Shown piece after piece: positions 597 to 40,567 of a stretch of DNA of 64,000 nucleotides. Numbering within the stretch: position 1 is the stretch's first letter; the number at the start of each line of letters is the position of its first letter. Under the pieces are notes generated by a model that saw only the letters and a program-made list of their open reading frames with translations, made no database searches and was not told the DNA's origin. Both the position numbers and the translations under genes were made by a program. This DNA is from Pirellulales bacterium (GTDB lineage: Bacteria; Planctomycetota; Planctomycetia; Pirellulales; UBA1268): contig JBILKZ010000002.1 in assembly GCA_044376405.1 (NCBI GenBank), forward strand, positions 1,466 through 65,465, written 5' to 3'.

Positions 597-1307
597 TTAT
601 GCCGGGAAAGAGGCCCGCGTTGCCGGTCTCGCCGCTTTCAGCCGACGACGCTCAAGCAACCCCAGCGACCCCAAGACAAGAGCCAGAACACTTCCAACGC
701 TATTCGGGTCGATCTCGGGGACGGATGAGGCCGAGCCACCAGAGACGGTGAAGGTGGCACCCTGATCTGTGGCATCACTCTTAAGGAAGAGCCCAACATT
801 CGTGTAGAGACCACGGACGACTTGAGCGCCGGAACCCAAGAAAGGCGACTGTAGATCGGTGTAGAGTCCGGCACCCGCCACGCTAAGATGAGTAGAGCCA
901 GATGAGCCGTCGCCGGCGAGGTACCCGAAAGAATCAACGCCGTAACCGGGTGTGTCAAAACTGCGATCGATACTGAAAACGCCCACTTGCTGGCCGATGG
1001 AACCATCCGTCACCATGGTTGCCTGGAGCGTGGAACTCCCCGTCGTAATGGTCAAAAGGGGCGTCATAGCAAGGAACTTGAAGGGTATTACGCCAGAAAG
1101 TGTTCCAGTAACGACGTTCGTCGGATCAGCCGTCCCAGTGATTGACCACGTTGCGTCGGTGAACGGAGTGCCACCGAGGGTGCCCGTGATGATCCCGCCC
1201 GTGGCGGTGTACGTTAGCGTTGACGCATCCGCCGCCGATGGAGCGGCCAGCATGGATGCCAATGCGATCAGCCCAACGGAAAGCGTCTGGAACGAGATGC
1301 GAATCAT
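597..1307 (-). CDS. PEP-CTERM sorting-domain protein
   Basis: N-terminal signal peptide (MIRISFQTLSVGLIALASMLAAPSAADA). C-terminal VPEIDPNSVGSVLALVLGSLGLLERRRLK gives the PEP-like motif, a TM helix and an Arg cluster. The body is Gly/Thr/Ser-rich. Confidence 0.85.
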   Translation of the reverse strand: MIRISFQTLSVGLIALASMLAAPSAADASTLTYTATGGIITGTLGGTPFTDATWSITGTADPTNVVTGTLSGVIPFKFLAMTPLLTITTGSSTLQATMVTDGSIGQQVGVFSIDRSFDTPGYGVDSFGYLAGDGSSGSTHLSVAGAGLYTDLQSPFLGSGAQVVRGLYTNVGLFLKSDATDQGATFTVSGGSASSVPEIDPNSVGSVLALVLGSLGLLERRRLKAARPATRASFPA

Positions 1308-1625
1308 GATCGTGGCTCTTGGGATCGGACGGAGGGCGTTGCCGGAATAAAAGCTCTGTTTTTACTTCCGGCCCCAACCGTGTCAAACAAATGGCCAAAA
1401 ACCGCTAAAACGCCCGTACATCACGGCTTGCAAGGGCATGCGAAGGTCGATCACTGGCACTCGTTGGCCGGCAAACCAGCAACAATCCCCTATTTCCTGT
1501 CCAATAATGATCACGTAACGTTCACGATCAGGTCTTGGGGTTGATTGCCCGTCCTGCTACCGTTTCCGCTTCCATTCCCACCAAGGGCTTGGGGGCAGGA
1601 CCCTTACCTAGATAACGCATTGTGG

Positions 1626-2261
1626 ATGACCATGGGCCGTAAACCGCAGCAAGCTCGTAGCATTCTTTCGATGGCCAGAATGCTCGACGCCGCAGAGGCC
1701 ATTTTCGCAGAGGGCGGGGACAGCTCCCTCACTGTGGAAGCGGTCATCAGGCGTGCGAAAACTTCGGTGGGAAACTTCTACGGCCGCTTCGGCGACCGCG
1801 ACGGCCTCCTGAAAGCAATGCATGAGCGGTTTCTCTTGCGGCTTGGAGGCGCGGCGCACGTGGCGGTCGCAGCAGCCGGCAACGAAAAAACCCTGGTCGG
1901 CGCAATCGAGGTGTTCCTCTCGCACGTCTTCACTGCCACGCAGGAGTACCGCAACTCGGCCCGCTTCTTCGTTCTTCACCGTTCGGCCGACACGACCCTG
2001 CGGGCGCAGGGCATCCGGGCGAACGCCGTGTTTGCCGGCATCTTCACCACGCTCGTGCTGAGCCACCGCGAGGAGATCACCCATGCCCACCCGGAGACCG
2101 CGACCGATGTGGCCTGGCGGTTGATGTTTGCGGCTTTAGCCCAGCAGATGATGTTCGACGACCACGAAGTCAGCGGCAAGCCGATAACCATCCCGGAGTT
2201 GGTGCACGAAATCGCCTGCTGCCTCGGGGCCTACCTCAAGGCACCCCCGGCGAAACACTGA
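1626..2261 (+). CDS. TetR/AcrR family transcriptional regulator
   Basis: N-terminal HTH region ARSILSMARMLDAAEAIFAEGGDSSLTVEAVIRRAKTSVGNFYGRFGDRDGLL. The ATG at 1626 is preferred over the ORF-track start at 1545, which adds a Pro-rich leader. Confidence 0.85.
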   Translation: MTMGRKPQQARSILSMARMLDAAEAIFAEGGDSSLTVEAVIRRAKTSVGNFYGRFGDRDGLLKAMHERFLLRLGGAAHVAVAAAGNEKTLVGAIEVFLSHVFTATQEYRNSARFFVLHRSADTTLRAQGIRANAVFAGIFTTLVLSHREEITHAHPETATDVAWRLMFAALAQQMMFDDHEVSGKPITIPELVHEIACCLGAYLKAPPAKH

Positions 2262-2397: not shown

Positions 2398-3678
2398 TCA
2401 GTCTCGCTGGCGAGGCAGCATGAGCCCCAGGGGCGTGCACCTGATGCGGTCTTCGCCGCGGCGGAAAGTCTCCCAGGCCTCGGAGTAACTGAGATCCTCG
2501 CGCTTGGCGAGCCTCAAGCAGGAGTAGCCCAGGAACGAGGCCATCAGGATCCGGAACGGCGTCATGGGTTGTGAGAGGTCGACCGTCATCGCAATCCTCC
2601 GCAGCGCATCGGTTTCCCGGCCCCACGTGGCCGCGTAGGCCGCCAACGCAGCATCCAGCGAATCGCGATGCTCGTGCAGGCACTGAGCGAGCACCGTCGC
2701 GCCTTCCATGGCCGCATTCACTCCCTGCCCCACGGGAGGCACCGGAGCGCCAGCATCGCCCAGCAGCGCCACCCGCCCGGCCACGAGAGACGAGCATCGC
2801 TTGGTCTTGCCGGTCGGCAGACATTGCCGCTGGCTGAACTCCTCCACTTTTGTATCGGAGGCGAAATGCCGCAGCAGGGGATGGGCCCTGTCGAGAAAAC
2901 GACCGGCATCGGCGGCGGAGTCGAATCGCCTCGTGCCGCTGAACCCGATCTGGCAGAACCAGCGCGGATCCGCCGGGCCTCCGGGGCCGTTGATCGCCCC
3001 GGCCACTGCCGTCACAGGATGGACCGCAAGGACATAGAGATACTGCGGATCGAGTTCGTCGAGGTGCTTGTCCAGATGCAGCATCAGGGAATGGTTGCCC
3101 AGATCGGCTCCCTCGACTGCAAACCCGCTGGCCTGCTCGGCGATCGACCGCCGCACGCCGCTGCCGCCGCCGTCGCAGCCCACGACCAGATCGAACCGTC
3201 GCACTTCACCGGCCGCGTCACCCCGCGACGCGATGAGGAGCTGTGGCTGCCCGGCATCGACGAGGGTCGCCTCCGCTCCGAAGTGGAGGGCCGCGGAATC
3301 TGCATGCCGCTCAAGCAGATGGGCCTGGAGACAGCGGCAGATGTCCCCGCGGCTCCCCGTCCAGCCCCTGCCGTGATAGGCCTCCTCTGCGAAGCCAGCC
3401 CCGAGCCGACGAAGCCAAGGGTGGGCGGCGATTCTCAGCCCCTTGAAGTGAATGAGCCCGGCATCGAAACGGTCGGTGATGCCGATGAAGCGAGCCGCTC
3501 GCAGACCGTGGCCCGTGATGTCGATCGTGTAGCTGCGGTCGGGGTTGTAGGTTTCGGCGCTGAAGTGGTCTTCGGCACGCTCGAATACCGCGATCTCAAA
3601 CCCGCCCTGCTGGGCCAACGCCGCAGCGAGCGTCAGACCCGCGGGCCCACCACCGACGATCGCCACGCTGAATGTCAC
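2398..3678 (-). CDS. FAD-dependent monooxygenase (kynurenine 3-monooxygenase-like)
   Basis: GxGxxG dinucleotide fold VAIVGGGPAGLTLA...VFER, a DG motif VVGCDGGGSGVRR, and the late FAD motif LLGDAGAPVPPVGQGVNAAMEGATVL. Confidence 0.8.
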   Translation of the reverse strand: MTFSVAIVGGGPAGLTLAAALAQQGGFEIAVFERAEDHFSAETYNPDRSYTIDITGHGLRAARFIGITDRFDAGLIHFKGLRIAAHPWLRRLGAGFAEEAYHGRGWTGSRGDICRCLQAHLLERHADSAALHFGAEATLVDAGQPQLLIASRGDAAGEVRRFDLVVGCDGGGSGVRRSIAEQASGFAVEGADLGNHSLMLHLDKHLDELDPQYLYVLAVHPVTAVAGAINGPGGPADPRWFCQIGFSGTRRFDSAADAGRFLDRAHPLLRHFASDTKVEEFSQRQCLPTGKTKRCSSLVAGRVALLGDAGAPVPPVGQGVNAAMEGATVLAQCLHEHRDSLDAALAAYAATWGRETDALRRIAMTVDLSQPMTPFRILMASFLGYSCLRLAKREDLSYSEAWETFRRGEDRIRCTPLGLMLPRQRD

Positions 3679-15789: not shown

Positions 15790-17322
15790 GTGGCCACTTC
15801 GGACAGGAACAGCCCACCCGCATCGACTGCGTCGCTCCTGGTCTGGGAGCCGATCGACACGGCCCGTCTGCTCGAGTCGGTGGCGAACGACGCGGCCGGC
15901 GCGAACGTGCTGTTCACCGGCACGACCCGTGGTGTGACGGCCGGCGTGCTCACCACTCAGATCACCGAGCGGCTCACCTACGAAGCCCACGAACCGCTGG
16001 CCTCCGCCGTGCTGGCCCGGCTGCGGGACGAGGCGGTGGCACAGTACGGCCTGACCGCGTGCGCGATCATCCATCGGCTCGGCGAGGTCGCCGTCGGCGA
16101 GACGAGCGTGGCCATTGCCACGAGCGCACCGCACCGCCGCGAGGCCTTTGCCGCAGCGGAGTGGCTGATGGAGCGGATCAAGCGCGAGGCGCCGATCTGG
16201 AAGTGTGAGGAGGGAGCCGGCGGCGACCGCAGCTGGGTGCATCCAGATAGTGGGTTGCATCCCGCCAGTGAGTCGCGATCCGAGCCACGCCCCGTGCTCG
16301 TCGACGGCTTCGGCCGCGTCCACACCGACCTGCGGATCAGCGTCACCGACCGCTGCAATCTCCGCTGCACCTACTGCATGCCGCTCGACGTGGCCTTCAA
16401 GCCACGGGAGGAACTGCTCAGCTACGAGGAGATCGTGCGGGTGGCCCGCGTGGCGGCCGGACTCGGCATCCGTTCGATCAGGATCACGGGGGGCGAGCCG
16501 CTCGTTCGGCGCGACGTCGCCGAGCTGGTGCGGCAGCTCGTCACCATTTCCGGCATCGCGGAGGTGTCGCTCACGACCAACGGCCTGCTGCTGGAGGAGC
16601 AGGCCGCCGACCTGCGTCGGGCGGGCCTGCATCGGCTCAACGTCAGCCTCGACGCGCTCAATGAGGATGCCTTCGAGCGTATCGCACGGAGGCAGGGCCT
16701 GGCTCGCGTGCTGGCCGGGCTGGCGGCGGCCAAGGCGGCCGGCTTTCAGTCGATCAGGATCAACGCCGTCTCCATCCGCGGCCTCACCGAAGGGGAGATC
16801 GTGCCACTGGCGGAGTTCTGTCGCCGTGAGGGGTTTCACCTGCGGTTCATCGAGTTCATGCCGCTCGATGGCGAGTCATCCTGGTCAGACGGTCAGGTGC
16901 TCTCCGGTCGCGAGGTACGCGACATGCTCACGCGGCACTTTGGACCGCTCATCCCTGCCGTCCGCGGCGACGCCGGCCAGCCGGCGATCGACTATTCCTA
17001 TGCCAATCACGACATCGCGAACGCCGCGATGGGTGCTGCCGGTCTTCCCACGCAGGCTGCCGGTGTCGGCTTCATCGATCCAGTGACACAGCCCTTTTGC
17101 GACCGATGTGACCGGCTGCGACTCACGGCCGACGGTCAGTTTCGCAACTGCCTGTTCTCGACGACGGAGTGGGACGCGCGGCACGCGCTCCGCGCGGGCG
17201 GCTCCGACGACGAGATCGCCCGCCTGCTTCGCGATTGCGTGCTGGCGAAGCGGGCCGCGCATGGCATCGGCACACCGGCATTCGAGCGGCCAGCCCGCGC
17301 GATGTATCAGATCGGAGGATGA
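15790..17322 (+). CDS. fused molybdopterin synthase catalytic subunit (MoaE) and GTP 3',8-cyclase (MoaA)
   Basis: N-terminal half has IIHRLGEVAVGETSVAIATSAPHRREAFAAAEWLMERIKREAPIWKCEE (MoaE). After a linker of about 30 aa comes LRISVTDRCNLRCTYCMP...ITGGEPLVR...CDRCDRLRLTADGQFRNCLF...IGG (radical-SAM MoaA). GTG start is 1 nt after the moaD stop. Confidence 0.85.
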   Translation: MATSDRNSPPASTASLLVWEPIDTARLLESVANDAAGANVLFTGTTRGVTAGVLTTQITERLTYEAHEPLASAVLARLRDEAVAQYGLTACAIIHRLGEVAVGETSVAIATSAPHRREAFAAAEWLMERIKREAPIWKCEEGAGGDRSWVHPDSGLHPASESRSEPRPVLVDGFGRVHTDLRISVTDRCNLRCTYCMPLDVAFKPREELLSYEEIVRVARVAAGLGIRSIRITGGEPLVRRDVAELVRQLVTISGIAEVSLTTNGLLLEEQAADLRRAGLHRLNVSLDALNEDAFERIARRQGLARVLAGLAAAKAAGFQSIRINAVSIRGLTEGEIVPLAEFCRREGFHLRFIEFMPLDGESSWSDGQVLSGREVRDMLTRHFGPLIPAVRGDAGQPAIDYSYANHDIANAAMGAAGLPTQAAGVGFIDPVTQPFCDRCDRLRLTADGQFRNCLFSTTEWDARHALRAGGSDDEIARLLRDCVLAKRAAHGIGTPAFERPARAMYQIGG

Positions 17323-25806: not shown

Positions 25807-28029
25807 ATGGTCGGCTCCTTTGAAATTTTTCGCAAATACCAGCGTTCCCTGCTCGTATTTGTGGCAATCCTCGCAATGCTCGCGTTTTTCGTGCTGCCTC
25901 CGTTCCTGCAGATGGGCGGCTCAGCCGCGTCTCAGGATCCCGTGGCCGTCACCTGGAACGGAGGCGAACTGCGAGAGGGTGGACTCGAGAGAACCGTCGC
26001 CATGCGTTCGCTCGTGAACCGTTTCCTGATGGAGTCGGCGGCAGCCGGCGGCCGCGATCCATCCCGAATGCCGCTGCTGCCCGAGGGGGAAGAACAGACC
26101 GTACAAACAGCCCTGCTCGCCCAAGACGCCAAAGCCAACGGCATCGTCGTGAGTGATCAGAGCATCAACGATTTCCTCGGGCAGTGGACCGGCAACCTCG
26201 TGCGGCAGGAGCAGTTCGACGAAATCCTCTCCCGTCTCCGGCTTGGGCCGTTTCCCCTGACGCAACGCGATCTCTTCGAAGTGCTGCGGACGGAACTCGC
26301 TGCCCGCACGATGCTGATGCTCCATCAGTCGGCCCTCAGTGCCGACCCGCCGGGCTGGCAGTGGGACTACTTCCGTCGGCTCGAGCAGCAGTCCACGGTG
26401 GAAGTGGTGCCGGTCGTCGTGGAGAACTTTGCAGGCGATGTGCCTGCGCCATCGGAGTCGGCGCTCCGTGCCTTCTATGAAAAATACAAGAACGACCTGC
26501 CCCAGGCCCGCAGTGCCGATCCGGGCTTTCGAGAGCCCCACCGCGTGCAATACGAATACCTCGTTGCCAAGCGTGGGCTGTTCGAAGAGGAGGCCGCGAA
26601 GGAGGTGACCGACGAGCAGGTCGCCGAATACTATGAGAAGAACAAGACGTCGATGTTTCGCGCGAAGCCGACCGCACCGGAGGCGAAGCCCACTGCAACC
26701 GGAGAAAAGGCGACCGAGCCGGAAGCGAAGCCGGCTGAGACTGAAGCCAAGCCTGCGGCTAATGACGCCAAGCCAGCGGCCACGGAAGCCAAGCCTGCGG
26801 CCACCGACGCCAAGCCAGCTGAAACGCCGGCCAAACCTGCCGACCCCGCCGCCGCCCCCAAGCCAGCCGACGTGAAACCGGAGGCTACCCCCGCCGCCCC
26901 CAAGGGTGCTGCCATCGGCGGCAGCGCTTTCCGGACAGTGTCTTTCAAGCAGCCGGCTGAAAAGCCTGCTGAGACGGCAGCCAAGCCCGCTGCCGACGAG
27001 AAGTCTGCCGTCGAGAAGAAAGAGGAAAAGAAAGACGAGAAGGTTGCCGGCGAGAAGCCTGCCGACGAAAAGAAAGACGATACGAAAACCGAAGAAGCGG
27101 CACAGTTCGAACCGCTCGACGCGGTGAAGGACGACATCCGCAAGCGGCTGGCACGGGAACGGGCCGAAGCCCGGATCGACGCCGTCTTCACGGCCGTGGC
27201 TGGCGATGTCGGCCGCTATGCCGAGGACTACGCTCTTTGGCAGGCGAGGAAGCCCGCAGGCGTCGAGGCCCCGCGGCCTCCCGACCTGACCAAGATCGCG
27301 GAAAAACAGGGGCTGGAATCGGGCCGCTCCGACCTGGTCGCTCCCGATGCAGCCTTCGCCGCCGGTGGCATTGGCGGCAGTTTTGAATTCGTTCAGGATC
27401 CCTCCAGCCGCTTTGGCATCCGTCAGCAGCGCTGGCTCGACCAGATGTTCGGGGCCGGATCGATGTCGTTGCGGCCCATTCGCTCACGCGATGTCGAGGG
27501 CAACCGCTACCTGTCGTGGCGAACGGAGGACCAGCCCGAGTTCACGCCGTCGTTTGAGACCGCTCGTTCGGGCGTGGAACGAGCCTGGAGGATCGTCGAG
27601 GGCCGCAGCCTGGCCAAAAAACGCGCTGAGTCACTCGCCCAGCAACCCGGCTCCGGTGGCGACGAGACGAAGGCCGTTAAGGTCGGTCCATTCTCCTGGC
27701 TCACGCAGGGCATGGGTGGCGGAGCCCCGGTTCTGTCGCAGCCCGAAGGCATATCGATGCCCGGCGACGAATTCATGCGGGCCGTGTCCTCCCTGGAGCC
27801 GGGTAAGACGGCCGTCGCGTTCAACGAGCCACGGACCGTCTGCTACGTGATCCGGCTCGTCTTGCAGGAGCCGCCCTCGGCAGAACTGCAGGAGAAGTTT
27901 CTGGCCGGCCGCAATGACCGGCAGAAGATTGGCATGGTCGCACAGCGGGAGGCGTCTACGACCTTCCGCGAGCTGATCGAGGGCATGGAGAAGCGGTACC
28001 GCCTCGATTGGAAGCGGCAGCCAAGGTAG
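25807..28029 (+). CDS. membrane-anchored PpiD/SurA-N-like periplasmic chaperone with low-complexity insert
   Basis: N-terminal FRKYQRSLLVFVAILAMLAFFVLPPF anchor and SurA-N-like region. A long Ala/Lys/Pro/Glu linker. No clear parvulin motif was seen. Confidence 0.6.
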   Translation: MVGSFEIFRKYQRSLLVFVAILAMLAFFVLPPFLQMGGSAASQDPVAVTWNGGELREGGLERTVAMRSLVNRFLMESAAAGGRDPSRMPLLPEGEEQTVQTALLAQDAKANGIVVSDQSINDFLGQWTGNLVRQEQFDEILSRLRLGPFPLTQRDLFEVLRTELAARTMLMLHQSALSADPPGWQWDYFRRLEQQSTVEVVPVVVENFAGDVPAPSESALRAFYEKYKNDLPQARSADPGFREPHRVQYEYLVAKRGLFEEEAAKEVTDEQVAEYYEKNKTSMFRAKPTAPEAKPTATGEKATEPEAKPAETEAKPAANDAKPAATEAKPAATDAKPAETPAKPADPAAAPKPADVKPEATPAAPKGAAIGGSAFRTVSFKQPAEKPAETAAKPAADEKSAVEKKEEKKDEKVAGEKPADEKKDDTKTEEAAQFEPLDAVKDDIRKRLARERAEARIDAVFTAVAGDVGRYAEDYALWQARKPAGVEAPRPPDLTKIAEKQGLESGRSDLVAPDAAFAAGGIGGSFEFVQDPSSRFGIRQQRWLDQMFGAGSMSLRPIRSRDVEGNRYLSWRTEDQPEFTPSFETARSGVERAWRIVEGRSLAKKRAESLAQQPGSGGDETKAVKVGPFSWLTQGMGGGAPVLSQPEGISMPGDEFMRAVSSLEPGKTAVAFNEPRTVCYVIRLVLQEPPSAELQEKFLAGRNDRQKIGMVAQREASTTFRELIEGMEKRYRLDWKRQPR
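26661..26900 (+). repeat. in-frame 21-nt (heptad xAKPAAT) tandem repeats
   Basis: PEAKPTAT/PEAKPAET/EAKPAAN/DAKPAAT/EAKPAAT/DAKPAET/PAKPADP, visible at DNA level as gccaagcc(a/t)gcggc units. Confidence 0.8.
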
Positions 28030-33393: not shown

Positions 33394-34259
33394 GCGATCA
33401 CGCTAAAACACCGCTCTTGCGGATCGGCGTTCCCAGCAAGGGACGCCTCGCAGAAATCTCTGCGCAACTCCTCAACGATGCCGGCGTCTCTTTCCGCCGC
33501 AACGAACGAAGCCTGTTCGCCCTCTGCCGTGGCATGCAGGTCGAAGTGATTTTCCTGCGGACCGACGACATCCCCGTGCTGACGGCCGAGGGGGCGATCG
33601 ATCTGGGCATCACTGGTGCCGACCTCGTGGCCGAAAGCGGCGAGAAGCTCATCCATCGGCTCGATCTCGGCATCGGCTCCTGCCGGCTGGCCCTCTGTGT
33701 CGCCGACGATTCCCCCGTGACCGACGCCCGTCAGCTCGCGGGCAAGCGGGTTGCCACCAGCTTCCCACGGATCACGCGGCAGTGGCTGGCGGAGCGGGGC
33801 GTGGAGGCCCACTTCGTGGAGCTGTCCGGGAGCGTCGAGATCATGATCAACCTCGGCGTGGCAGACGCCATCGTTGACTTGGTCGAGACAGGCAGCACGC
33901 TCGCCGCCAACCGGCTCCGCGTGCTCGACGAGATCGGCCGATATGAAACGGTGCTCGTGCAGAACGAAAAGGTTCGCGACGCGGCGACCGCCGACCGGAT
34001 CGTACGGCGGCTGGAGGGGATCGTGATCGCTCGCAACTGGTCGCTGCTCGAATACAACGTGCCGAGAACTCGGCTGGCCGAGGCCGAGAAAATCACCCCC
34101 GGCTTCAACTCACCGACGGTCAGTGGACTTGAAGACCCCGACTGGTGCGCCGTGCGGGCGATGGTGAAGCGCGGCGAGGCCCACGCGATCATGGAGCGGC
34201 TCGACGCCATCGGCGCTTCGGCGATCATCGAAACACAGATCGCCAACTGCCGCCTGTAA
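33390..34259 (+). CDS. hisG: ATP phosphoribosyltransferase (long form)
   Basis: LRIGVPSKGRLAE...FLRTDDIPVLTAEGAIDLGITGADLV...DLVETGSTLAANRL, plus a C-terminal regulatory domain. GTGA overlap with hisE. Confidence 0.92.
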   Translation: MSDHAKTPLLRIGVPSKGRLAEISAQLLNDAGVSFRRNERSLFALCRGMQVEVIFLRTDDIPVLTAEGAIDLGITGADLVAESGEKLIHRLDLGIGSCRLALCVADDSPVTDARQLAGKRVATSFPRITRQWLAERGVEAHFVELSGSVEIMINLGVADAIVDLVETGSTLAANRLRVLDEIGRYETVLVQNEKVRDAATADRIVRRLEGIVIARNWSLLEYNVPRTRLAEAEKITPGFNSPTVSGLEDPDWCAVRAMVKRGEAHAIMERLDAIGASAIIETQIANCRL

Positions 34260-34327
34260 AAAAGGTGCCAGCCACCAAATCTGGGCAAGATGCCAGCTTC
34301 CCCAATTTTGGTGGCTGGCACCTTTTT
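34259..34327. terminator. bidirectional hairpin between convergent hisG and DUF1559 genes (repeat family R1)
   Basis: aaaaaggtgccagccaccaaa-N27-tttggtggctggcaccttttt has perfect 21-nt arms with an A-run on one side and a T-run on the other. It fills the gap between the two stop codons exactly. Confidence 0.7.
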
Positions 34328-35478: not shown

Positions 35479-35530
35479 GATCCTCACCATAGTGAGCCCA
35501 AAAATGGTGACTGTCACCTTTTTCAGCTCG

Positions 35531-36322
35531 TTAGGCGTGGCCGCCGAGAATCTCCCGTAGCCGCATGCCCGGGAGCCGGCCGAGGGCGAGCGGTTCCACG
35601 CCCTCGCCAAACGTCGCCACCGTCTCGTTCCGCGACGACCAATCGACCTGCTCGATCGCTGCGAGTTGGACAATGTACGACCGGCCCACCCGCGCAAAAG
35701 CGCTCGTAGGCAGAACCTTGTCCCAATAGGTCAGCCGGCGACGGAAGAGCACGACGCCTACCGGTGGCTTGAGCGCCACCCGCGTGTAGTTACGAAGCGA
35801 CTCGATCCAGCAGATGTCACTGACGGTCACCACATTCGACGTGGTCTTGCCGGCCAAGGGCACGTTCACCACGTCATCAAGCCCCAGGACCGCCACGGCT
35901 GCAGCCTCGTCCGCGTCGAGGTCGTCGGTGCCCTGCTCGCGGTCCCCTCTCGGCCGGCCCCGCGTGCCGGCAGCCTGCTTCTGGAGGCGGGCGACCGTGT
36001 CGGCGAGTCTTTCGGGATCAACAGGCTTCACGAGATAGTCGAGGGCCGCAGCAGCGAACGCCTGCACGGCATACTTCTCGCGAGCCGTGACAAACACCAC
36101 CTGTGTGGCATCGGACACATCCTTGAGCAGGTCGAAACCGCTGCCCCCCGGCATTTCCACGTCGAGAAATACGACGTCCGGCGAATGCGTTTCGAGAAAG
36201 GCCCGGGCCTCGGCGACGTTCCCGGCGACGCCGGAGACGACGATCTCCGGATAGGCTGAGAGGAGTTTCTGCATCCGTTCATTGGCACGAGGCTCGTCGT
36301 CGACGAGCAGGGCCGTGATCAT
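35531..36322 (-). CDS. LytTR-family response regulator
   Basis: Receiver MITALLVDDEP...DVVFLDVEMPGGSGFDLL. C-terminal LytTR-like ICWIESLRNYTRVAL...FARVGRSYIV. An alternative ATG at 36367 lies 1 nt after the kinase stop. Confidence 0.88.
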   Translation of the reverse strand: MITALLVDDEPRANERMQKLLSAYPEIVVSGVAGNVAEARAFLETHSPDVVFLDVEMPGGSGFDLLKDVSDATQVVFVTAREKYAVQAFAAAALDYLVKPVDPERLADTVARLQKQAAGTRGRPRGDREQGTDDLDADEAAAVAVLGLDDVVNVPLAGKTTSNVVTVSDICWIESLRNYTRVALKPPVGVVLFRRRLTYWDKVLPTSAFARVGRSYIVQLAAIEQVDWSSRNETVATFGEGVEPLALGRLPGMRLREILGGHA

Positions 36323-36368
36323 CGTGCTATCCGGAGGGATGCGGGCGGCTTGTGAGACTGAAGGCATG

Positions 36369-37580
36369 TCAGACGAGTTCCTCAGCTGGGGTCGGTTCGC
36401 GGACGGCCGGCGATGGCTGGGTGAGCGTCGCAGGCATCCGGATGACGACCCGCACCCAGCCGCCATCGAGGTCCGGGTCGATCACCGTATCGACGGTGGC
36501 CGCCTCATCGACCAGCAGGGCCATCCGCTTGCGGAGCGAACGGATCCCAGTGGAGGGCGAACGCGACGTGTCGGGCGGCACCCATCGGCCGGTGTTGGCG
36601 ACCACCACCTCGAGCCAGCCATCGGCCACCTTCGCCGTCACGCTCACCCGCAGCGGCATGCTGCTCGTCTGGGCTCCATAGTGCAGCGCGTTTTCGAGGA
36701 TCGGCTGAATCAGCATCGGCGGCACGATCACGGCATGGGCTGCCCTGTCGCATGAGAAACGGCAGACGAGGTTGTCGCCAAACCGCGCCTGCTGAACAGC
36801 AAGGTATTTCTCGAGGGCCTGCAATTCCCGTGACAGCGGCTCAAACTCGCGGGCCTCTTCGAGCGTGAACCGTAGATAGTCGGCGAGGTCGCGGGTGACG
36901 CTCTCCACGGCCTCGGGGTCGTCCTTGCTGGCCGCCACGGCGTTGAGCGCATTGAAAAGGAAATGCGGATTCATCTGCGCCTGCAGTTGCCGCAGTTCGA
37001 ACGTGCGGGCCTCCGCCTCCGCCTTGAGCATCCGGAGTTCCAGATCCATCGCGGTCGCCTCGTTCTCCGCGAGCAGGATCTTTGCCCGGTAGAGATCCTC
37101 GATCAGCTCCAGCCCGAAGACGATCAAGCACCAGAGGCCCGCCGCGATCAGCCGCGGCACGAGCGGCCCGAGCGTCGTCTCACGGGTCCAGTTCGTGGGC
37201 CCGCCGACGCCGCCGCCGATGAGCAGCAGAATCGATGCTGCGAGCGCTACCACCGCCACGCCCACCATCAGCGGCCACCGCACCTTCCGCGGCAGCTCGC
37301 GGAGCCGCGGCAAATCGAACAGCAGATAGACAAGGCTCGAAACCACGAAGCCGGTGGCCACTCGCAGTGCGACCGGCAGCCACGGCATCGGCTCGCCGGG
37401 CTTGAAAGCCATGCTCATCCCCAACACGGCCGCGCCAATTGCCAGCCAGAACACGACTTGGAATGCCCAGAAGATCCGCTTCCGCCACCGAGGAAGCGCC
37501 CGCCGAAGCGCCGCCATCCTTGGCGGCACGACCCCCGTCGCATTCGCAGCGGGCAAGCGGGCGATTGGAGTCGAATCCAT
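36369..37580 (-). CDS. LytS/YehU-type sensor histidine kinase
   Basis: 5-6 N-terminal TM helices, a coiled linker, His-kinase motif QMNPHFLFNALN, and the ATPase N-box PMLIQPILENALHYG. Confidence 0.88.
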   Translation of the reverse strand: MDSTPIARLPAANATGVVPPRMAALRRALPRWRKRIFWAFQVVFWLAIGAAVLGMSMAFKPGEPMPWLPVALRVATGFVVSSLVYLLFDLPRLRELPRKVRWPLMVGVAVVALAASILLLIGGGVGGPTNWTRETTLGPLVPRLIAAGLWCLIVFGLELIEDLYRAKILLAENEATAMDLELRMLKAEAEARTFELRQLQAQMNPHFLFNALNAVAASKDDPEAVESVTRDLADYLRFTLEEAREFEPLSRELQALEKYLAVQQARFGDNLVCRFSCDRAAHAVIVPPMLIQPILENALHYGAQTSSMPLRVSVTAKVADGWLEVVVANTGRWVPPDTSRSPSTGIRSLRKRMALLVDEAATVDTVIDPDLDGGWVRVVIRMPATLTQPSPAVREPTPAEELV

Positions 37581-37674
37581 GGGAGCTGCCGCCGAGGGGG
37601 GTACTCACTGATGCTTGTGGGGCGGGGATCGCCTGAGTCAGCATCTGCAGTATGGCGCATCCCGGTAGCCGCGT

Positions 37675-37774
37675 CAGCCGTAAGGGCGGCCCGTGTCAAT
37701 TCGTGCGCGCCGGCTGGCTGATTCGTGCGCGCCAGTGTCGATTCGTGCGCGCCAGTGTCGATTCGGCATTTTGC
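37675..37774 (+). promoter_or_regulatory. ~100-nt repeat element A with 3.5 direct ATTCGTGCGCGCC cores
   Basis: Cores start at 37699, 37721 and 37741, with a truncated one at 37761. Near-identical to 38776-38875. It ends 90 nt before the PEP-CTERM gene start and about 95 nt from the kinase start on the other strand. The regulatory role is inferred. Confidence 0.6.
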
Positions 37775-37863
37775 GGGGTAAGTCGCGTTGACAGAACCCA
37801 TGAAAACGCTTCACTGGTGGGGTTTCTAACCATAACCCTGCCGTCATTGTCGGAGTCGCGCTC

Positions 37864-38628
37864 GTGGGCAAGTTCATAGATAAGTTCGTCCGTCGGCCCT
37901 TCGTTCTCTCAGCCGTCGGTTTGGTCGTGACAACCGCGATCCGCGTGACGGCCATCGCCGCATCGCTCGCCGCAGGAGGCTCGACTTTTGCTGAACCCGT
38001 CTTCATCGGCGATTTCGACGGCAACACGATCACCGCGGTCGCAACCAACGAGTTGAGCTGGGCCCCTGCTTCCCGTTTGCTTGATGGAAGTGGGATGATC
38101 GACCTGACGGACGGGCGGGTCACGATGAACTCCAAGGCTTACAATACCTGGCCGGAAGTGTGGCTGTCAGATTATCGGGGCCCATATGGAACCAACGGGT
38201 CTGTTCTGTTTACTTTCGGAGAAAACACATCGCTTGAAGCGATGGTGATATGGAATATGAGTAATGCTGGATCCCCCACCGCATACGGGAGAGGTGTGCA
38301 GTTGGCGACGATTTCGTACTCGACGGGCGCTGACACGAGCGGCGAGGGCTCGACTCTATTTGATGGGACACTGGCGGAGGCAGTCTGGTCGGGGACGTAC
38401 ACCGGTATCGGCTATCAAAACAACATCAATGGTTTGACCGCGCAAAACGTAAAGGCTGTCAAGATGGCCTACACGTTGAACTATGGTAGCGGCGACTACA
38501 TCGGCCTGAGTGAAGTGCGTTTCGTGGGAACGCCCGTCGTCGTGCCCGAGCCCTCCACTTACGCCATGGCCCTCGCCGGTCTGGTCTGGGGTGGCTACTC
38601 GATGTGGCGGCGTCGCAAGCGGGCCTGA
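37864..38628 (+). CDS. PEP-CTERM protein with discoidin/galactose-binding-like body
   Basis: Signal/anchor-like N-terminus. The body ends ...GDYIGLSEVRFVG. C-terminal VPEPSTYAMALAGLVWGGYSMWRRRKRA. GTG start with GGAG 8 nt upstream. Confidence 0.85.
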   Translation: MGKFIDKFVRRPFVLSAVGLVVTTAIRVTAIAASLAAGGSTFAEPVFIGDFDGNTITAVATNELSWAPASRLLDGSGMIDLTDGRVTMNSKAYNTWPEVWLSDYRGPYGTNGSVLFTFGENTSLEAMVIWNMSNAGSPTAYGRGVQLATISYSTGADTSGEGSTLFDGTLAEAVWSGTYTGIGYQNNINGLTAQNVKAVKMAYTLNYGSGDYIGLSEVRFVGTPVVVPEPSTYAMALAGLVWGGYSMWRRRKRA

Positions 38629-38660
38629 CTCGAGACCTTCGCGGTGATCGTGATCTCACC

Positions 38661-38700
38661 CTGGGCTGGGCATCGCAGGATGCCCAGCCCGGTTTCGTTT
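38661..38700 (+). terminator. hairpin plus T-rich tail after PEP-CTERM gene 1
   Basis: ctgggctgggcatc-gcag-gatgcccagcccgg followed by tttcgttt. Confidence 0.6.
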
Positions 38701-38716
38701 GTGAAAGGGAAATCGA

Positions 38717-38770
38717 GGACGGGAGCGGCCTCTGCGAACCAGACGGGAAATTCGCTCCCGTCCCTTTTTT
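38717..38770 (+). terminator. second hairpin with T-run (GGACGGGAGCG family)
   Basis: ggacgggagcg-N25-cgctcccgtcc followed by ctttttt. Confidence 0.5.
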
Positions 38771-38775
38771 CTGTC

Positions 38776-38875
38776 CAGCAGTAAGGGCCGTTCGTGTCAA
38801 TTCGTGCGCGCCGGCGGGCTGATTCGTGCGCGCCAGTGTCGATTGGTGCGCGCCAGTGTCGATTCGGCATTTTAC
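38776..38875 (+). promoter_or_regulatory. ~100-nt repeat element B
   Basis: Copy of 37675-37774 at an offset of exactly 1101 nt, with about 7 mismatches by hand alignment. Cores start at 38800, 38822 and 38842 (the last is ATTGGTGCGCGCC), with a truncated one at 38862. It ends 87 nt before the start of PEP-CTERM gene 2. Confidence 0.6.
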
Positions 38876-38961
38876 TGCGTCTGGCCGCTTGCAGACGAAG
38901 GGGGCGGGGGGCTAGTTTTCGCTACGAACGCATCACCTCGCCCCCTAAAGAGCCCAACCCC

Positions 38962-39762
38962 ATGAAAGCAATTATCTTCGCCAATTGCCTGGCTGTGATG
39001 CTTGCCGCAGGACTCACTTCATTCGAAGGAACTGCACGCGGCGCGATAATCCAACTTACCGGCGGCGACCCTTCCGACGGACTCGCACTTGATCCCAATT
39101 CTGTCTTCGCGGCGATCTATACACCAGCGGACGGGAACTTCTCGCAATCCATCTTCCCGAGCGCAACTCAAACTTTTCAAGGCGTCACATTTTCCGCTAC
39201 GCCTTCCAGCATCGCGAGAGGAGGTCCCAGCGGATCGGGTGTCTATATTTTGGGAGCCCTGAACGCTGGCTCTGCGGGATTCAGTGACCCTGGATCTCCG
39301 TCCACGCAAGACGACAATCTGTTAAGTTTGATCAATGCCGGGGCGTACTTTAACTCCGAGTATCTCACGTTCACCGTTTCCGACTTAGCCCCGTACACCA
39401 GCTATCGGATCGACACGCTTTCGTCAAATCTTGGCTTCAGCACTCCTCGTTCGTTTACAGTCTCTTACAACGGCGGATCGGTTGCCGATACCCTTGCCAT
39501 CAGCGGTGCTGAAACTAACTACATCTATGCCATTCAGGATGTGGTGAGTTCAACTGGTGCAGGTGAGATCTTTATCAGATACGACAAGCTCACAGGGGAC
39601 GGACCCACGATCAATGCCTTGGTTGTTTCAGCTTTAACGTCGTCAGTCCCCGAGATCGACCCCGCTGGCTTCGGTAGCGTCGCGGCGCTCCTGACGGGGG
39701 CGTTCGGCCTGATCGAGCAGCGGCGTCGCCGTCGTAGCGAGACGATCGCTCGCTCCGCCTGA
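38962..39762 (+). CDS. PEP-CTERM sorting-domain protein
   Basis: Signal peptide MKAIIFANCLAVMLAAGLTSFEGTARG. C-terminal SVPEIDPAGFGSVAALLTGAFGLIEQRRRRR. The ATG at 38962 is preferred over the track start at 38794, which would read through the repeat element. Confidence 0.85.
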   Translation: MKAIIFANCLAVMLAAGLTSFEGTARGAIIQLTGGDPSDGLALDPNSVFAAIYTPADGNFSQSIFPSATQTFQGVTFSATPSSIARGGPSGSGVYILGALNAGSAGFSDPGSPSTQDDNLLSLINAGAYFNSEYLTFTVSDLAPYTSYRIDTLSSNLGFSTPRSFTVSYNGGSVADTLAISGAETNYIYAIQDVVSSTGAGEIFIRYDKLTGDGPTINALVVSALTSSVPEIDPAGFGSVAALLTGAFGLIEQRRRRRSETIARSA

Positions 39763-39789
39763 ACGAGCTTTCTCCATTGACCACTCACA

Positions 39790-39830
39790 ACCGGGCCGGG
39801 CATCGCAAGATGCCCGGCCCGGTGTCGTTT
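39790..39830 (+). terminator. hairpin plus T-rich tail after PEP-CTERM gene 2
   Basis: accgggccgggcatc-gcaa-gatgcccggcccggt followed by gtcgttt. Homologous to 38661-38700, with a compensatory base-pair change. Confidence 0.6.
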
Positions 39831-40039
39831 GGTGACGCCGTTGTCTTTTTGCGAAGTGCCCCCGAGGCGGAGGACGAATCGGGGACGGGAGCGACTTTTG
39901 CCACGATCGCTACACACGCTGTCGTCGCCTGTTCCCGTCAACCGCAGTCGACACTGAGAGGACGAGAGCGGCTTTTTCTGCGACCGATTCCACGGCACGT
40001 GATTGAATTCACTCCCCCCCTTTTTTGCCGTAAGTCACT

Positions 40040-40423
40040 ATGCGACAACCTTTGGAATACATTCACCTGTTTTCGGACGGTCTAGGCGAGTCGCATATTA
40101 AAACTGCGACCATACCGCTCCAGTCAGAGCAATTCGCACCGCCCGAACCACCGCTCGATGTTTCTGCCGTGAGCCGAGCTGAAGGGTGGAACCTCCTCAG
40201 ATTCGCTGCGGACTGGGTCGGTGGCTGGCATTGCACACCCTTCAGACAATGGATGTTCATTCTCACCGGGCAAGCAACTGTTCGCGCAAGCGACGGCAGC
40301 CAATGCGATCTCAAGCCGGGAAGCATCTGCCTGCTTGAGGACACCCGGGGAAAAGGGCACCTAACGACAATCATCGGGGGCAACGAGGTGCTGATCGCTG
40401 CCGTTCAAATTCCGGATCGGTGA
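40040..40423 (+). CDS. cupin-like small protein, hypothetical
   Basis: 127 aa. GWHCTPFRQWMFILTGQATVRASDGSQCDLKPGSICLLED suggests a beta-barrel cupin core. Weak call. Confidence 0.45.
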   Translation: MRQPLEYIHLFSDGLGESHIKTATIPLQSEQFAPPEPPLDVSAVSRAEGWNLLRFAADWVGGWHCTPFRQWMFILTGQATVRASDGSQCDLKPGSICLLEDTRGKGHLTTIIGGNEVLIAAVQIPDR

Positions 40424-40426
40424 ACG

Positions 40427-40547
40427 AGGTGCCAGAAAAAGGTGCCAGCCACCAAATCTGGGCAAGATGCCAGTTTCTCCAAGAAAAACGTGCCAGCCAC
40501 CAAATCTGGGCAAGATGGCAGCTTCTCCAATTTTGGTGGCTGGCGCC
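40427..40547. repeat. tandem 1.5 copies of repeat family R1 between convergent gene ends
   Basis: ggtgccagccaccaaatctgggcaagatgccag occurs at 40441 without its 3' arm. At 40490-40547 it occurs with the arm tttggtggctggcgc. Same element as 34259-34327. Confidence 0.8.
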
Positions 40548-40567
40548 ATTTCCCCCATTTTTCATTT

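Follow-up and report, generated by a model that had tools for sequence, protein, structure and literature searches.

A two-component operon facing two repeat-preceded genes

The stretch analyzed here, 64 kb of a Pirellulales contig (hereafter, the window), carries a locus in which two genes for secreted proteins, each preceded by a tandem-repeat array (elements A and B), lie beside a divergent operon encoding a histidine kinase and a LytTR-type response regulator. The locus is organized as two cassettes, each made up of an array, a predicted promoter, a gene and a terminator, next to this operon (Table 1). Specifically, the exact 13-mer ATTCGTGCGCGCC occurs in the window at 37699, 37721, 37741, 38800 and 38822 and, with one mismatch, at 38842; the other matches, five in number and each with 2 mismatches, are as many as shuffled sequence predicts by chance. 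Tandem Repeats Finder reported period-20 arrays at 37689–37765 (score 108) and 38794–38866 (score 93). The two elements are 105 nucleotides (nt) long, 91% identical and sharply bounded, with unrelated flanks, and in both of them three cores follow one another in steps of 22 and then 20 nt, with a degenerate fourth unit, ATTCGGCATTTT, 20 nt further on. A preliminary description of the locus had placed the repeats near 21 nt apart and had taken element B to repeat the arrangement of element A for the second gene, and both points are borne out (steps of 22, 20 and 20 nt average ~21 nt); the unit, given there as 9–10 bp, has instead a conserved core of 11–13 nt. A relaxed 7-mer is found 57 times in the window, with pairs spaced 19–23 nt apart confined to elements A and B, and a profile built from modules of other loci only matches exactly these two elements in the window (E = 5e-19 and 2e-20).

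Several other identities were considered for the elements. An RNA element was dropped because Rfam gave zero family matches in the region, and the elements are not just the upstream portions of duplicated genes, since the two downstream genes share no detectable homology. A CRISPR-like identity or one as a miniature inverted-repeat transposable element (MITE) was rejected because of the unit size, because inverted termini are lacking and because the position close to the promoter is fixed. Elsewhere in the window (26662–26840), Tandem Repeats Finder also reported tandem repeats of 21 and 42 nt (GAAGCCAAGCCAGCGGCCACT, 4.7 copies).

Table 1. Features of the locus (window coordinates)
Feature	Position	Strand	Details and basis
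Response regulator, REC + LytTR	35531–36322	−	263 amino acids (aa), start MITALLVDDEP; Pfam PF00072, PF04397
Membrane histidine kinase (LytS/YehU/AlgZ-type)	36369–37580	−	403 aa; Pfam PF06580
Candidate kinase-regulator promoter	37649–37677	−	CATACT 37654–37649, cTGACg 37677–37672 17 nt upstream; conservation
Element A	37675–37779	+	Cores 37699–37711, 37721–37733, 37741–37753; terminal degenerate unit 37761–37772
−35-like hexamer TTGACA	37788–37793	+	15 nt beyond element A terminal unit; read from sequence
Cargo gene 1, secreted, PEP-CTERM tail VPEPSTYAMALAGLVWGGYSMWRRRKRA	37864–38628	+	PF07589, TIGR02595
Two terminator-like hairpins after gene 1	38661–38770	+	38661–38692 and 38742–38762 + T run; hairpin scan
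Element B	38776–38880	+	Cores 38800–38812, 38822–38834, 38842–38854 (ATTGGTG variant); terminal unit 38862–38873
Gene 2 −35-like TTGCAG and −10-like TAGTTT	38889–38918	+	38889–38894 and 38913–38918, 18-nt spacer; sequence, same architecture in relatives
Cargo gene 2, secreted, VPEID-CTERM-like tail SSVPEIDPAGFGSVAALLTGAFGLIEQRRRRR	38962–39762	+	Tail motif and homologues with VPEIDP tails
Terminator-like hairpins after gene 2	39793–39840	+	Hairpin scan

The regulator had already been described as a LytTR protein, and its two domains pass the Pfam models: the receiver (REC) domain scores 76.2 bits on PF00072 (cut-off 30.2) and the DNA-binding LytTR domain 42.3 bits on PF04397 (cut-off 22.6). Its FLDVEMPG motif, which contains the receiver's phospho-acceptor Asp, aligns with LDIRMPG of AlgR, and hardly any variation is seen in the LytTR core DICWIESLRNYTRVAL..FRRRL..FARV.RS, not even in a clade whose regulators share only ~52% identity overall. 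The kinase scores 81.6 bits on PF06580 (cut-off 25.2) and has the His motif NPHFLFN; HATPase_c (PF02518) matches weakly, at 17.4 bits (under the cut-off of 26.4), and residues 200–332 match the histidine kinase 6swj in PDB (E = 3.6e-15). The N-terminal ~190 aa form a multi-transmembrane region without an assigned family, containing 4 hydrophobic segments. At E ≤ 0.01 only PF06580 and HATPase_c match in Pfam, and the LytS sensor domain (5TMR-LYT) is absent, so that the earlier term “LytS-like” holds for the PF06580 core and not for the sensor. There are 785 kinase homologues with E ≤ 1e-10, the best 120 of which all have at least 71% identity, and the orthologues of both proteins match the lengths in the window (263 aa for the regulator).

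Both cargo genes had been described as PEP-CTERM genes. Gene 1 passes the models (PF07589, 28.6 bits, cut-off 20.7; TIGR02595, 20.8 bits, cut-off 16), but gene 2 is VPEID-CTERM-like, its tail consisting by eye of SSVPEIDP, a hydrophobic helix and then RRRRR. It matches no PEP-CTERM model and not the VPEID-CTERM model TIGR04161 even at E ≤ 10, and no Pfam or NCBIfam model at threshold. Related VPEID tails reach 27.7, 18.7 and 10.8 bits on TIGR04161, all below its cut-off of 33, and although Pfam has a VPEID-CTERM family (PF27847), the Pfam scan gave VPEID-type proteins no family even at E ≤ 10. No exosortase was found among the multi-transmembrane open reading frames (ORFs) of the window in a search that was not exhaustive.

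A hairpin family (GGGCYGGGCATCGCARGATGCCCRGCCCGGTKTCGTTTG) is repeated at 38663–38701 and 39793–39831, behind each cargo gene, and recurs behind the cargo genes of a related locus, L261. GC content is 53–60% over the cargo block and a small cupin-like gene (40040–40423), i.e., over 37800–40400, and 64–69% in the flanks, which suggests fast turnover or exchange of cassettes. A 68-nt palindromic element resembling a terminator or a repetitive extragenic palindromic (REP) sequence (AAAAAGGTGCCAGCCACCAAATCTGGGCAAGATGCCAGC...TTTTGGTGGCTGGCACCTTTTT) lies at gene ends at 34259–34326, 40436–40551 (two in tandem) and 35497–35526 (partial). Its copies flank a DUF1559 gene and the entire kinase-regulator-cargo block, and they also adjoin arrays in L169 and L209.

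Array linkage to the kinase/regulator pair and to exosortase cargo

Pattern scans revealed the same arrays in metagenome-assembled genomes (MAGs) of Planctomycetaceae/Planctomycetia (L038, L045, L050, L076 and L094) and in more than 100 metagenome contigs; all comparative loci, cited here by their L numbers, come from metagenomes or MAGs. Across 70 non-identical arrays, the period was 20 nt (91 intervals), 22 nt (54) or 21 nt (21) in 166 of the 173 intervals, and each array contained 2 to 7 full cores. The unit reads (C)CG(A/T)TTCGTGCGCGCC followed by 3–5 variable bases, and a terminal unit TTCG(G/T)C(A/C)TTTT stands 20 nt past the last core in 62 of the 70. A TTG(A/C)NN hexamer follows 15 nt past the terminal unit in at least 42/70, with a TAnnnT-like element ~17 nt further; in 14 more arrays the first TTG is found at +11 (TTGCTT in gaTTGCTTGCAA), and we read the TTGCAA hexamer of these arrays as lying at +15. 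The distance from the array end to the −35-like hexamer is 41 nt. Unit number is polymorphic, ranging overall from 2 to 9, and 3 or 4 units occur between otherwise identical flanks (L163/L208/L247 vs. L188/L223/L239). Orthologous promoters can likewise have 3 or 5 units (L129/L204 vs. L152), and the single contig L050 contains arrays of 3, 5 and 3 units (at 3067, 4026 and 5913).

When genome contigs (L001–L120) were scanned with the two-core pattern TTCGTGCGCGN{8,14}TTCGTGCGCG, most of the matches listed were unrelated to the arrays. Those in Burkholderiales proved to be conserved coding sequence (NFVRGEDSFVRA; NFVRGEDSFVRAQW), and those in Nocardia, Pseudonocardia and Solirubrobacteraceae were unrelated tandem repeats with a similar GATTCGTGCGCG unit.

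The only conserved gene neighbour of the arrays is the kinase/regulator pair. A kinase orthologue (tblastn, 55–96% identity) is present in ~28 array-selected loci, and in all of them an array begins 100–280 nt upstream of the kinase start codon and is directed away from the kinase. Co-occurrence of the pair and the repeat in relatives, proposed as a check in the preliminary description, was also seen when loci were picked by kinase homology alone, with an array in three of four lineages. These are L241, in which the kinase is 74% identical and is transcribed divergently from an array and a PEP-CTERM gene; L242/243 (79%), with one array separating the kinase from a tal-pgi operon and another before a PEP-CTERM gene 6.7 kb off; and L247/248 (73%), with an array and a PEP-CTERM gene.

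We also found a linkage of the arrays to sorting tails, as had been claimed for the two elements of the window. The first substantial ORF downstream of 52 non-redundant canonical arrays encodes a PEP-CTERM, VPEID or related tail in at least 33 cases (VPEIDP-type, 21; PEP-CTERM, 9; related xEIN-type, 3); in 4 it is cut by the contig end, and in 15 no tail is seen, several of these ORFs being frameshifted or miscalled copies of tail-bearing genes. The cargo is diverse, including an FGE-sulfatase domain, a beta-propeller, a 1370-aa autotransporter-like repeat protein and several folds without assignment. Many arrays sit on contigs without a nearby kinase, which is what distal members of a regulon would be expected to look like. 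Loci picked by gene 2 homology alone also had arrays in all three informative cases (L261, L262 and L263). L261 contains orthologues of both window cargo genes with one array each and no kinase/regulator within 10 kb; an XrtE exosortase/CAAX-protease fusion (TIGR04162, 212 bits, cut-off 150) and a large TPR protein are encoded 6 kb from this array-linked cargo. In L262 the order is kinase, array, gene, array, gene, array and two cargo genes, and in L263 an array is followed by two cargo genes. Orthologous or paralogous cargo can exchange its tail between PEP-CTERM and VPEID type while keeping the N-terminal domain, as seen for L129 vs. L131, for L146 vs. L163, and for gene 1 of the window, which is 75% identical to a VPEID-tailed protein of L261 (8768–9577) whose tail, AVPEPSSVPEIDP, has both motifs in tandem.

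Comparison of the window with L261 showed that the array and the −35 segment are conserved more strongly than coding sequence: cores, terminal unit and −35-like hexamer (37705–37804) are 94–98% identical, compared with 80–92% for coding sequence, 52% for the 5′ untranslated region and 46% upstream of the array. Traces of the core also appear at greater distance. In a clade chosen without reference to DNA, in which the kinase is 47% and the regulator ~52% identical to those of the window, TTCGTGC(A/G)(C/T)G-like repeat pairs 20–21 nt apart occur in the intergenic flanks of the two-component genes (L249, L255/256, L258 and L259/260). A strict test for TCGTGC pairs in this clade was significant only in L255 (p ~0.01) and L259 (0/300 simulations), and the pairs of L249 and L258 need one mismatch; a deep core, TTCGTGC, accompanying this regulator family is suggested by these flanks.

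Predicted promoters and the proposed control circuit

Promoter elements were assigned by conserved position only. If the hexamers beyond the arrays are −35 and −10 elements, the terminal unit would be centred at ~−55 and the full cores at ~−75, −95 and −117. On the kinase side, an alignment of 11 kinase upstream regions, one of them from the array-less L246, shows a single block apart from the array that does not vary: AGTATG (37649–37654; CATACT on the kinase strand), which with cTGACg forms a candidate promoter of the kinase-regulator operon. If CATACT belongs to that promoter, the kinase-proximal cores would lie upstream of it at ~−63, −85 and −105, so that a single array could serve both directions. 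The preliminary description had proposed autoregulation and target activation from one site; the divergent layout and the conserved candidate promoter are in keeping with this, and autoregulation is something the array could provide.

Judging from sequence comparison, elements A and B probably represent operator arrays for the adjacent LytTR-type response regulator, through which the exosortase-cargo cassettes would be activated. The membrane kinase would sense a signal, probably a membrane-associated one, and phosphorylate the regulator, which would then oligomerise on the phased units and activate the promoter 15 nt past the terminal unit. Because the units are spaced 20–22 bp apart, i.e., about two helical turns, bound regulator molecules would align on one face of the DNA. 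Activation would switch on single-gene cassettes for secreted proteins of the PEP-CTERM/VPEID-CTERM type, the predicted cargo of exosortases. In element A, the kinase-distal units would serve gene 1, and the kinase-proximal units, ~60–105 nt upstream of the candidate kinase promoter, may allow autoregulation from the same array.

A number of observations weigh against control of the cassettes by this regulator. Most comparative loci were found via the repeat itself, which is an ascertainment bias, and the sets free of it comprise just 4 kinase lineages and 3 cargo loci. The fourth kinase lineage, L244–246 (kinase 76% identical; GCA_964581055.1), has no array beside its intact pair or at its tal-pgi operon. 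Persistence of the pair without the element and its cargo, named beforehand as an outcome that would count against the link, is therefore seen in this one lineage, with the array kept in the other three. Homology to other kinase upstream regions ends there exactly at the expected array start, and array and cargo are replaced by a methyltransferase-like gene near transposase, integrase and toxin-antitoxin genes; we read the absence as secondary loss through rearrangement, and the pair can exist without an adjacent element as an exception. In the distant kinase clade, no relevant repeats lie near the kinase loci L251 and L253, the L253 pair being inside the kinase coding sequence. Within the window, a third VPEID-like gene (597–1307, minus strand; tail VPEIDPNSVGSVLALVLGSLGLLERRRLK) has its own TTGACA and no upstream array; it adjoins a divergent TetR-family regulator gene (1545–2261, plus strand). 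A strict sigma-70 consensus scan calls neither of the cargo promoters nor the candidate kinase promoter, and the predicted −10 of gene 1 is poor. Finally, a PDB sequence search with the regulator matched REC-domain relatives only and no LytTR structure; its LytTR domain is thus too divergent to match solved structures by sequence, and its specificity cannot be read from known contacts.

Some modules of relatives also depart from the canonical arrangement in ways that sit less well with the proposed circuit. In about five promoter families, two units lie 8–10 nt upstream of a sigma-54-type motif, TGGCACG-N4-(T/G)TGC(A/T), which is followed by a PEP-CTERM gene (L121, L141, L192, L196 with two sites, and L217; L126/L133/L135/L154/L161/L233; L143/L169; and L242, minus strand, near 3000). 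This subset includes a perfect TGGCACGGGGGTTGCT, and the cargo behind it is homologous to genes that elsewhere stand under the canonical module. No TGGCAC-N5-TTGC is present near elements A and B, the sole match in the window being at 16544 on the minus strand. The regulator has no AAA+ domain and therefore cannot by itself activate sigma-54-type promoters; at such modules it may be a co-factor or a repressor, or another factor may bind the units. At L161-type loci, moreover, an array of 5–9 units is inverted relative to the downstream gene: in L161 (6620–6770; also in L133, L135, L233, L126 and L143), this array, which has a period of 21, separates a truncated kinase-proximal array of 2 units from the cargo gene, and the REP-like palindrome CTGGAGCGATTCGCTCCAG occurs three times in the region between them. 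In a further sub-clade (L242, 8592–9838; L130, L162 and L215), the array precedes the tal-pgi (transaldolase/glucose-6-phosphate isomerase) operon, with its last unit extending over the −35 position that goes with a GCGTATAAC −10-like element. A degenerate two-unit module with a sigma-54-type motif also occurs upstream of an extracytoplasmic function (ECF) sigma gene (L244, 13198).

A different view is that the arrays are real cis-regulatory sites for some other protein (a sigma-54 enhancer-binding protein or another factor), with the kinase-regulator operon as one more target, which we consider unlikely. Such a protein would suit the relatives in which two units, including the perfect motif, stand directly before −24/−12 elements, as well as the inverted multi-unit array of L161-type loci, which is placed like an enhancer upstream of a sigma-54-type promoter; proteobacterial PEP-CTERM genes are under the control of sigma-54 and PrsR (PMC1569441), and L261 shows array-linked cargo with no pair within 10 kb. 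However, the conserved neighbours of the arrays include no gene for an enhancer-binding protein or, apart from the pair, for any regulator, and most modules, both window ones included, have no −24/−12 motif and instead a TTGACR-type hexamer at a fixed offset. A distance of 8–10 nt from the −24 element is also too close for a classical looping activator, the 20–22-bp direct-repeat geometry is the LytTR pattern, and the same core stands beside two-component genes in the distant kinase clade. It is quite improbable, in our view, that the regulator does bind the arrays and acts there mainly as a repressor or DNA-bending architectural factor, the promoters being driven by sigma-70 alone or by sigma-54 with its own activator. 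Units do occur with three core-promoter arrangements (canonical, overlapping the −35 at tal, and 8–10 nt from a sigma-54 motif), the perfect TTGACA of element A might need no activator, and AgrA bends DNA strongly and can also repress (PMC4227749, PMC4847170). Yet the canonical array lies wholly upstream of the −35, which is where activators usually bind and keeps the core promoter unobstructed; the −10-like elements have the weakness expected of activator-dependent promoters; and activation is the mode of the known LytTR systems whose divergent operons are autoregulated.

Another account treats the elements as non-regulatory repetitive DNA, either REP- or MITE-like or slippage-prone tandem repeats, that lies near these genes by descent only. 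Element B carries ~24 nt of pre-array sequence whose counterpart in element A overlaps the candidate promoter of the kinase, and this indicates that B arose by segmental duplication; unit number changes from 3 to 4 between identical flanks; further REP-like palindromes abound in these genomes, frequently next to arrays; and the GC content of the cargo block is atypically low. Against this, the arrays stand in a fixed orientation at fixed distances from the −35-like hexamer and the start codon, and their association is with one gene class and one regulator pair. They lack terminal inverted repeats and number only two in 64 kb, conservation of the core contrasts with variation in the 3–5-nt inter-core segment, and the array is better conserved than the adjacent coding sequence and far better than the untranslated region. 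We therefore regard descent alone as a highly improbable explanation.

Relation to known systems and implications

Published LytTR operators consist of 9–11-nt repeats separated by 11–13-nt spacers (PMC4847170), and the AgrA repeat nearest the promoter has its centre at about −60, within a divergent intergenic region that is autoregulated (PMC4227749). The array geometry (cores of 11–13 nt with a period of 20–22 nt, before a −35-like hexamer) fits these operators. AgrC/AgrA, ComD/ComE, PlnB/PlnC and YpdA/YpdB resemble the present system in combining a REC + LytTR regulator with direct repeats of ~9–13 nt at 20–22 nt just before the −35, and agr P2/P3 in a divergent layout that permits autoregulation from a shared intergenic region. 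In contrast to their single pair of repeats, the arrays described here have 2–9 units and a fixed degenerate terminal unit, and close relatives differ in unit number. Further differences are the GC-rich core (TTCGTGCGCGCC), the planctomycete host and the predicted targets, which are exosortase cargo genes rather than bacteriocin, competence or virulence loci. AgrC and ComD are HPK10-type kinases, whereas the kinase at this locus is of the PF06580 type, and no peptide-pheromone genes were seen here.

By kinase type and surface-related output, the closest known system is AlgZ(FimS)/AlgR of Pseudomonas aeruginosa, in which a membrane kinase of the PF06580 type forms a pair with a REC-LytTR regulator of cell-surface and exopolysaccharide functions. 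The AlgR site CCGTTCGTC, with variants CCGTTGGTC and CCGTTCATC (PMC4787818), resembles the unit CCG(A/T)TTCGTGC and its TTGGTGC variant, a resemblance that is a lead and not a test. AlgR sites are mostly single and dispersed, unlike the phased arrays found here. Identity of the regulator as an AlgR orthologue was rejected, as BLASTP against an AlgR sequence aligns the REC domain only (38% identity) and leaves the LytTR domains unaligned.

For exosortase cargo, the described precedent is the PrsK/PrsR/PrsT sigma-54 system upstream of PEP-CTERM genes in Proteobacteria, which was reported together with the prediction of further regulators outside this phylum (Haft et al. 2006; PMC1569441). The two cases share a two-component system, a conserved motif before single-gene PEP-CTERM operons with long intergenic regions, and the logic of phylogenetic co-occurrence. 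Unlike PrsR, the regulator of this locus consists of REC and LytTR only, without a sigma-54-interaction (AAA+) domain, and the promoters of the window have a phased direct-repeat array in place of a −24/−12 motif, although some relatives do join two units with a sigma-54-type promoter. The VPEID-CTERM/XrtE system (TIGR04161/TIGR04162) provides a second point of comparison: the tails share VPEIDP, a hydrophobic helix and an Arg-rich end, and XrtE is encoded near array-linked cargo in L261, but the tails seen here stay under the TIGR04161 cut-off and orthologous cargo alternates between PEP-CTERM and VPEID tails. Full-text literature searches returned no paper joining LytTR with PEP-CTERM, none mentioning VPEID-CTERM and none relevant for LytTR in planctomycetes, in agreement with the preliminary description, which knew of no described link between LytS/LytTR signalling and PEP-CTERM cargo. 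The signalling module is familiar, and what is new is the class of output, the multi-unit length-polymorphic operator and the coupling to sigma-54-type promoters.

A broader proposal, to which we give a small chance of being right, is that the units are portable, copy-number-variable LytTR operators placed before sigma-70-type promoters, in some lineages before sigma-54-type promoters and tal-pgi, and together form a planctomycete-specific master switch for exosortase (PEP-CTERM, XrtE/VPEID) cargo. If so, this would be the first regulation of exosortase cargo outside the proteobacterial PrsK/PrsR system and possibly the first LytTR regulator at sigma-54 promoters, and gain or loss of units (2–9) would tune output between strains.

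PEP-CTERM/exosortase systems are widespread in environmental bacteria and tied to the formation of exopolysaccharide, flocs and biofilms, and their described regulation is confined to the sigma-54 PrsK/PrsR system of Proteobacteria, other phyla having been left open by Haft et al. (2006). The recurrence of kinase/regulator, repeats and exosortase cargo in many uncultured freshwater planctomycetes points, at the level of sequence, to an undescribed regulon for this protein-sorting system. The locus offers a hypothesis that can be tested at the bench, with a named regulator, an operator sequence of defined architecture and target genes in abundant uncultured freshwater planctomycetes, and its multi-unit length-polymorphic arrays are a natural system for relating operator copy number to promoter output. 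If the regulator acts as proposed, LytTR signalling, studied mostly in Firmicutes and a few Proteobacteria, would gain a new phylum and a new output, the remodelling of the surface proteome.

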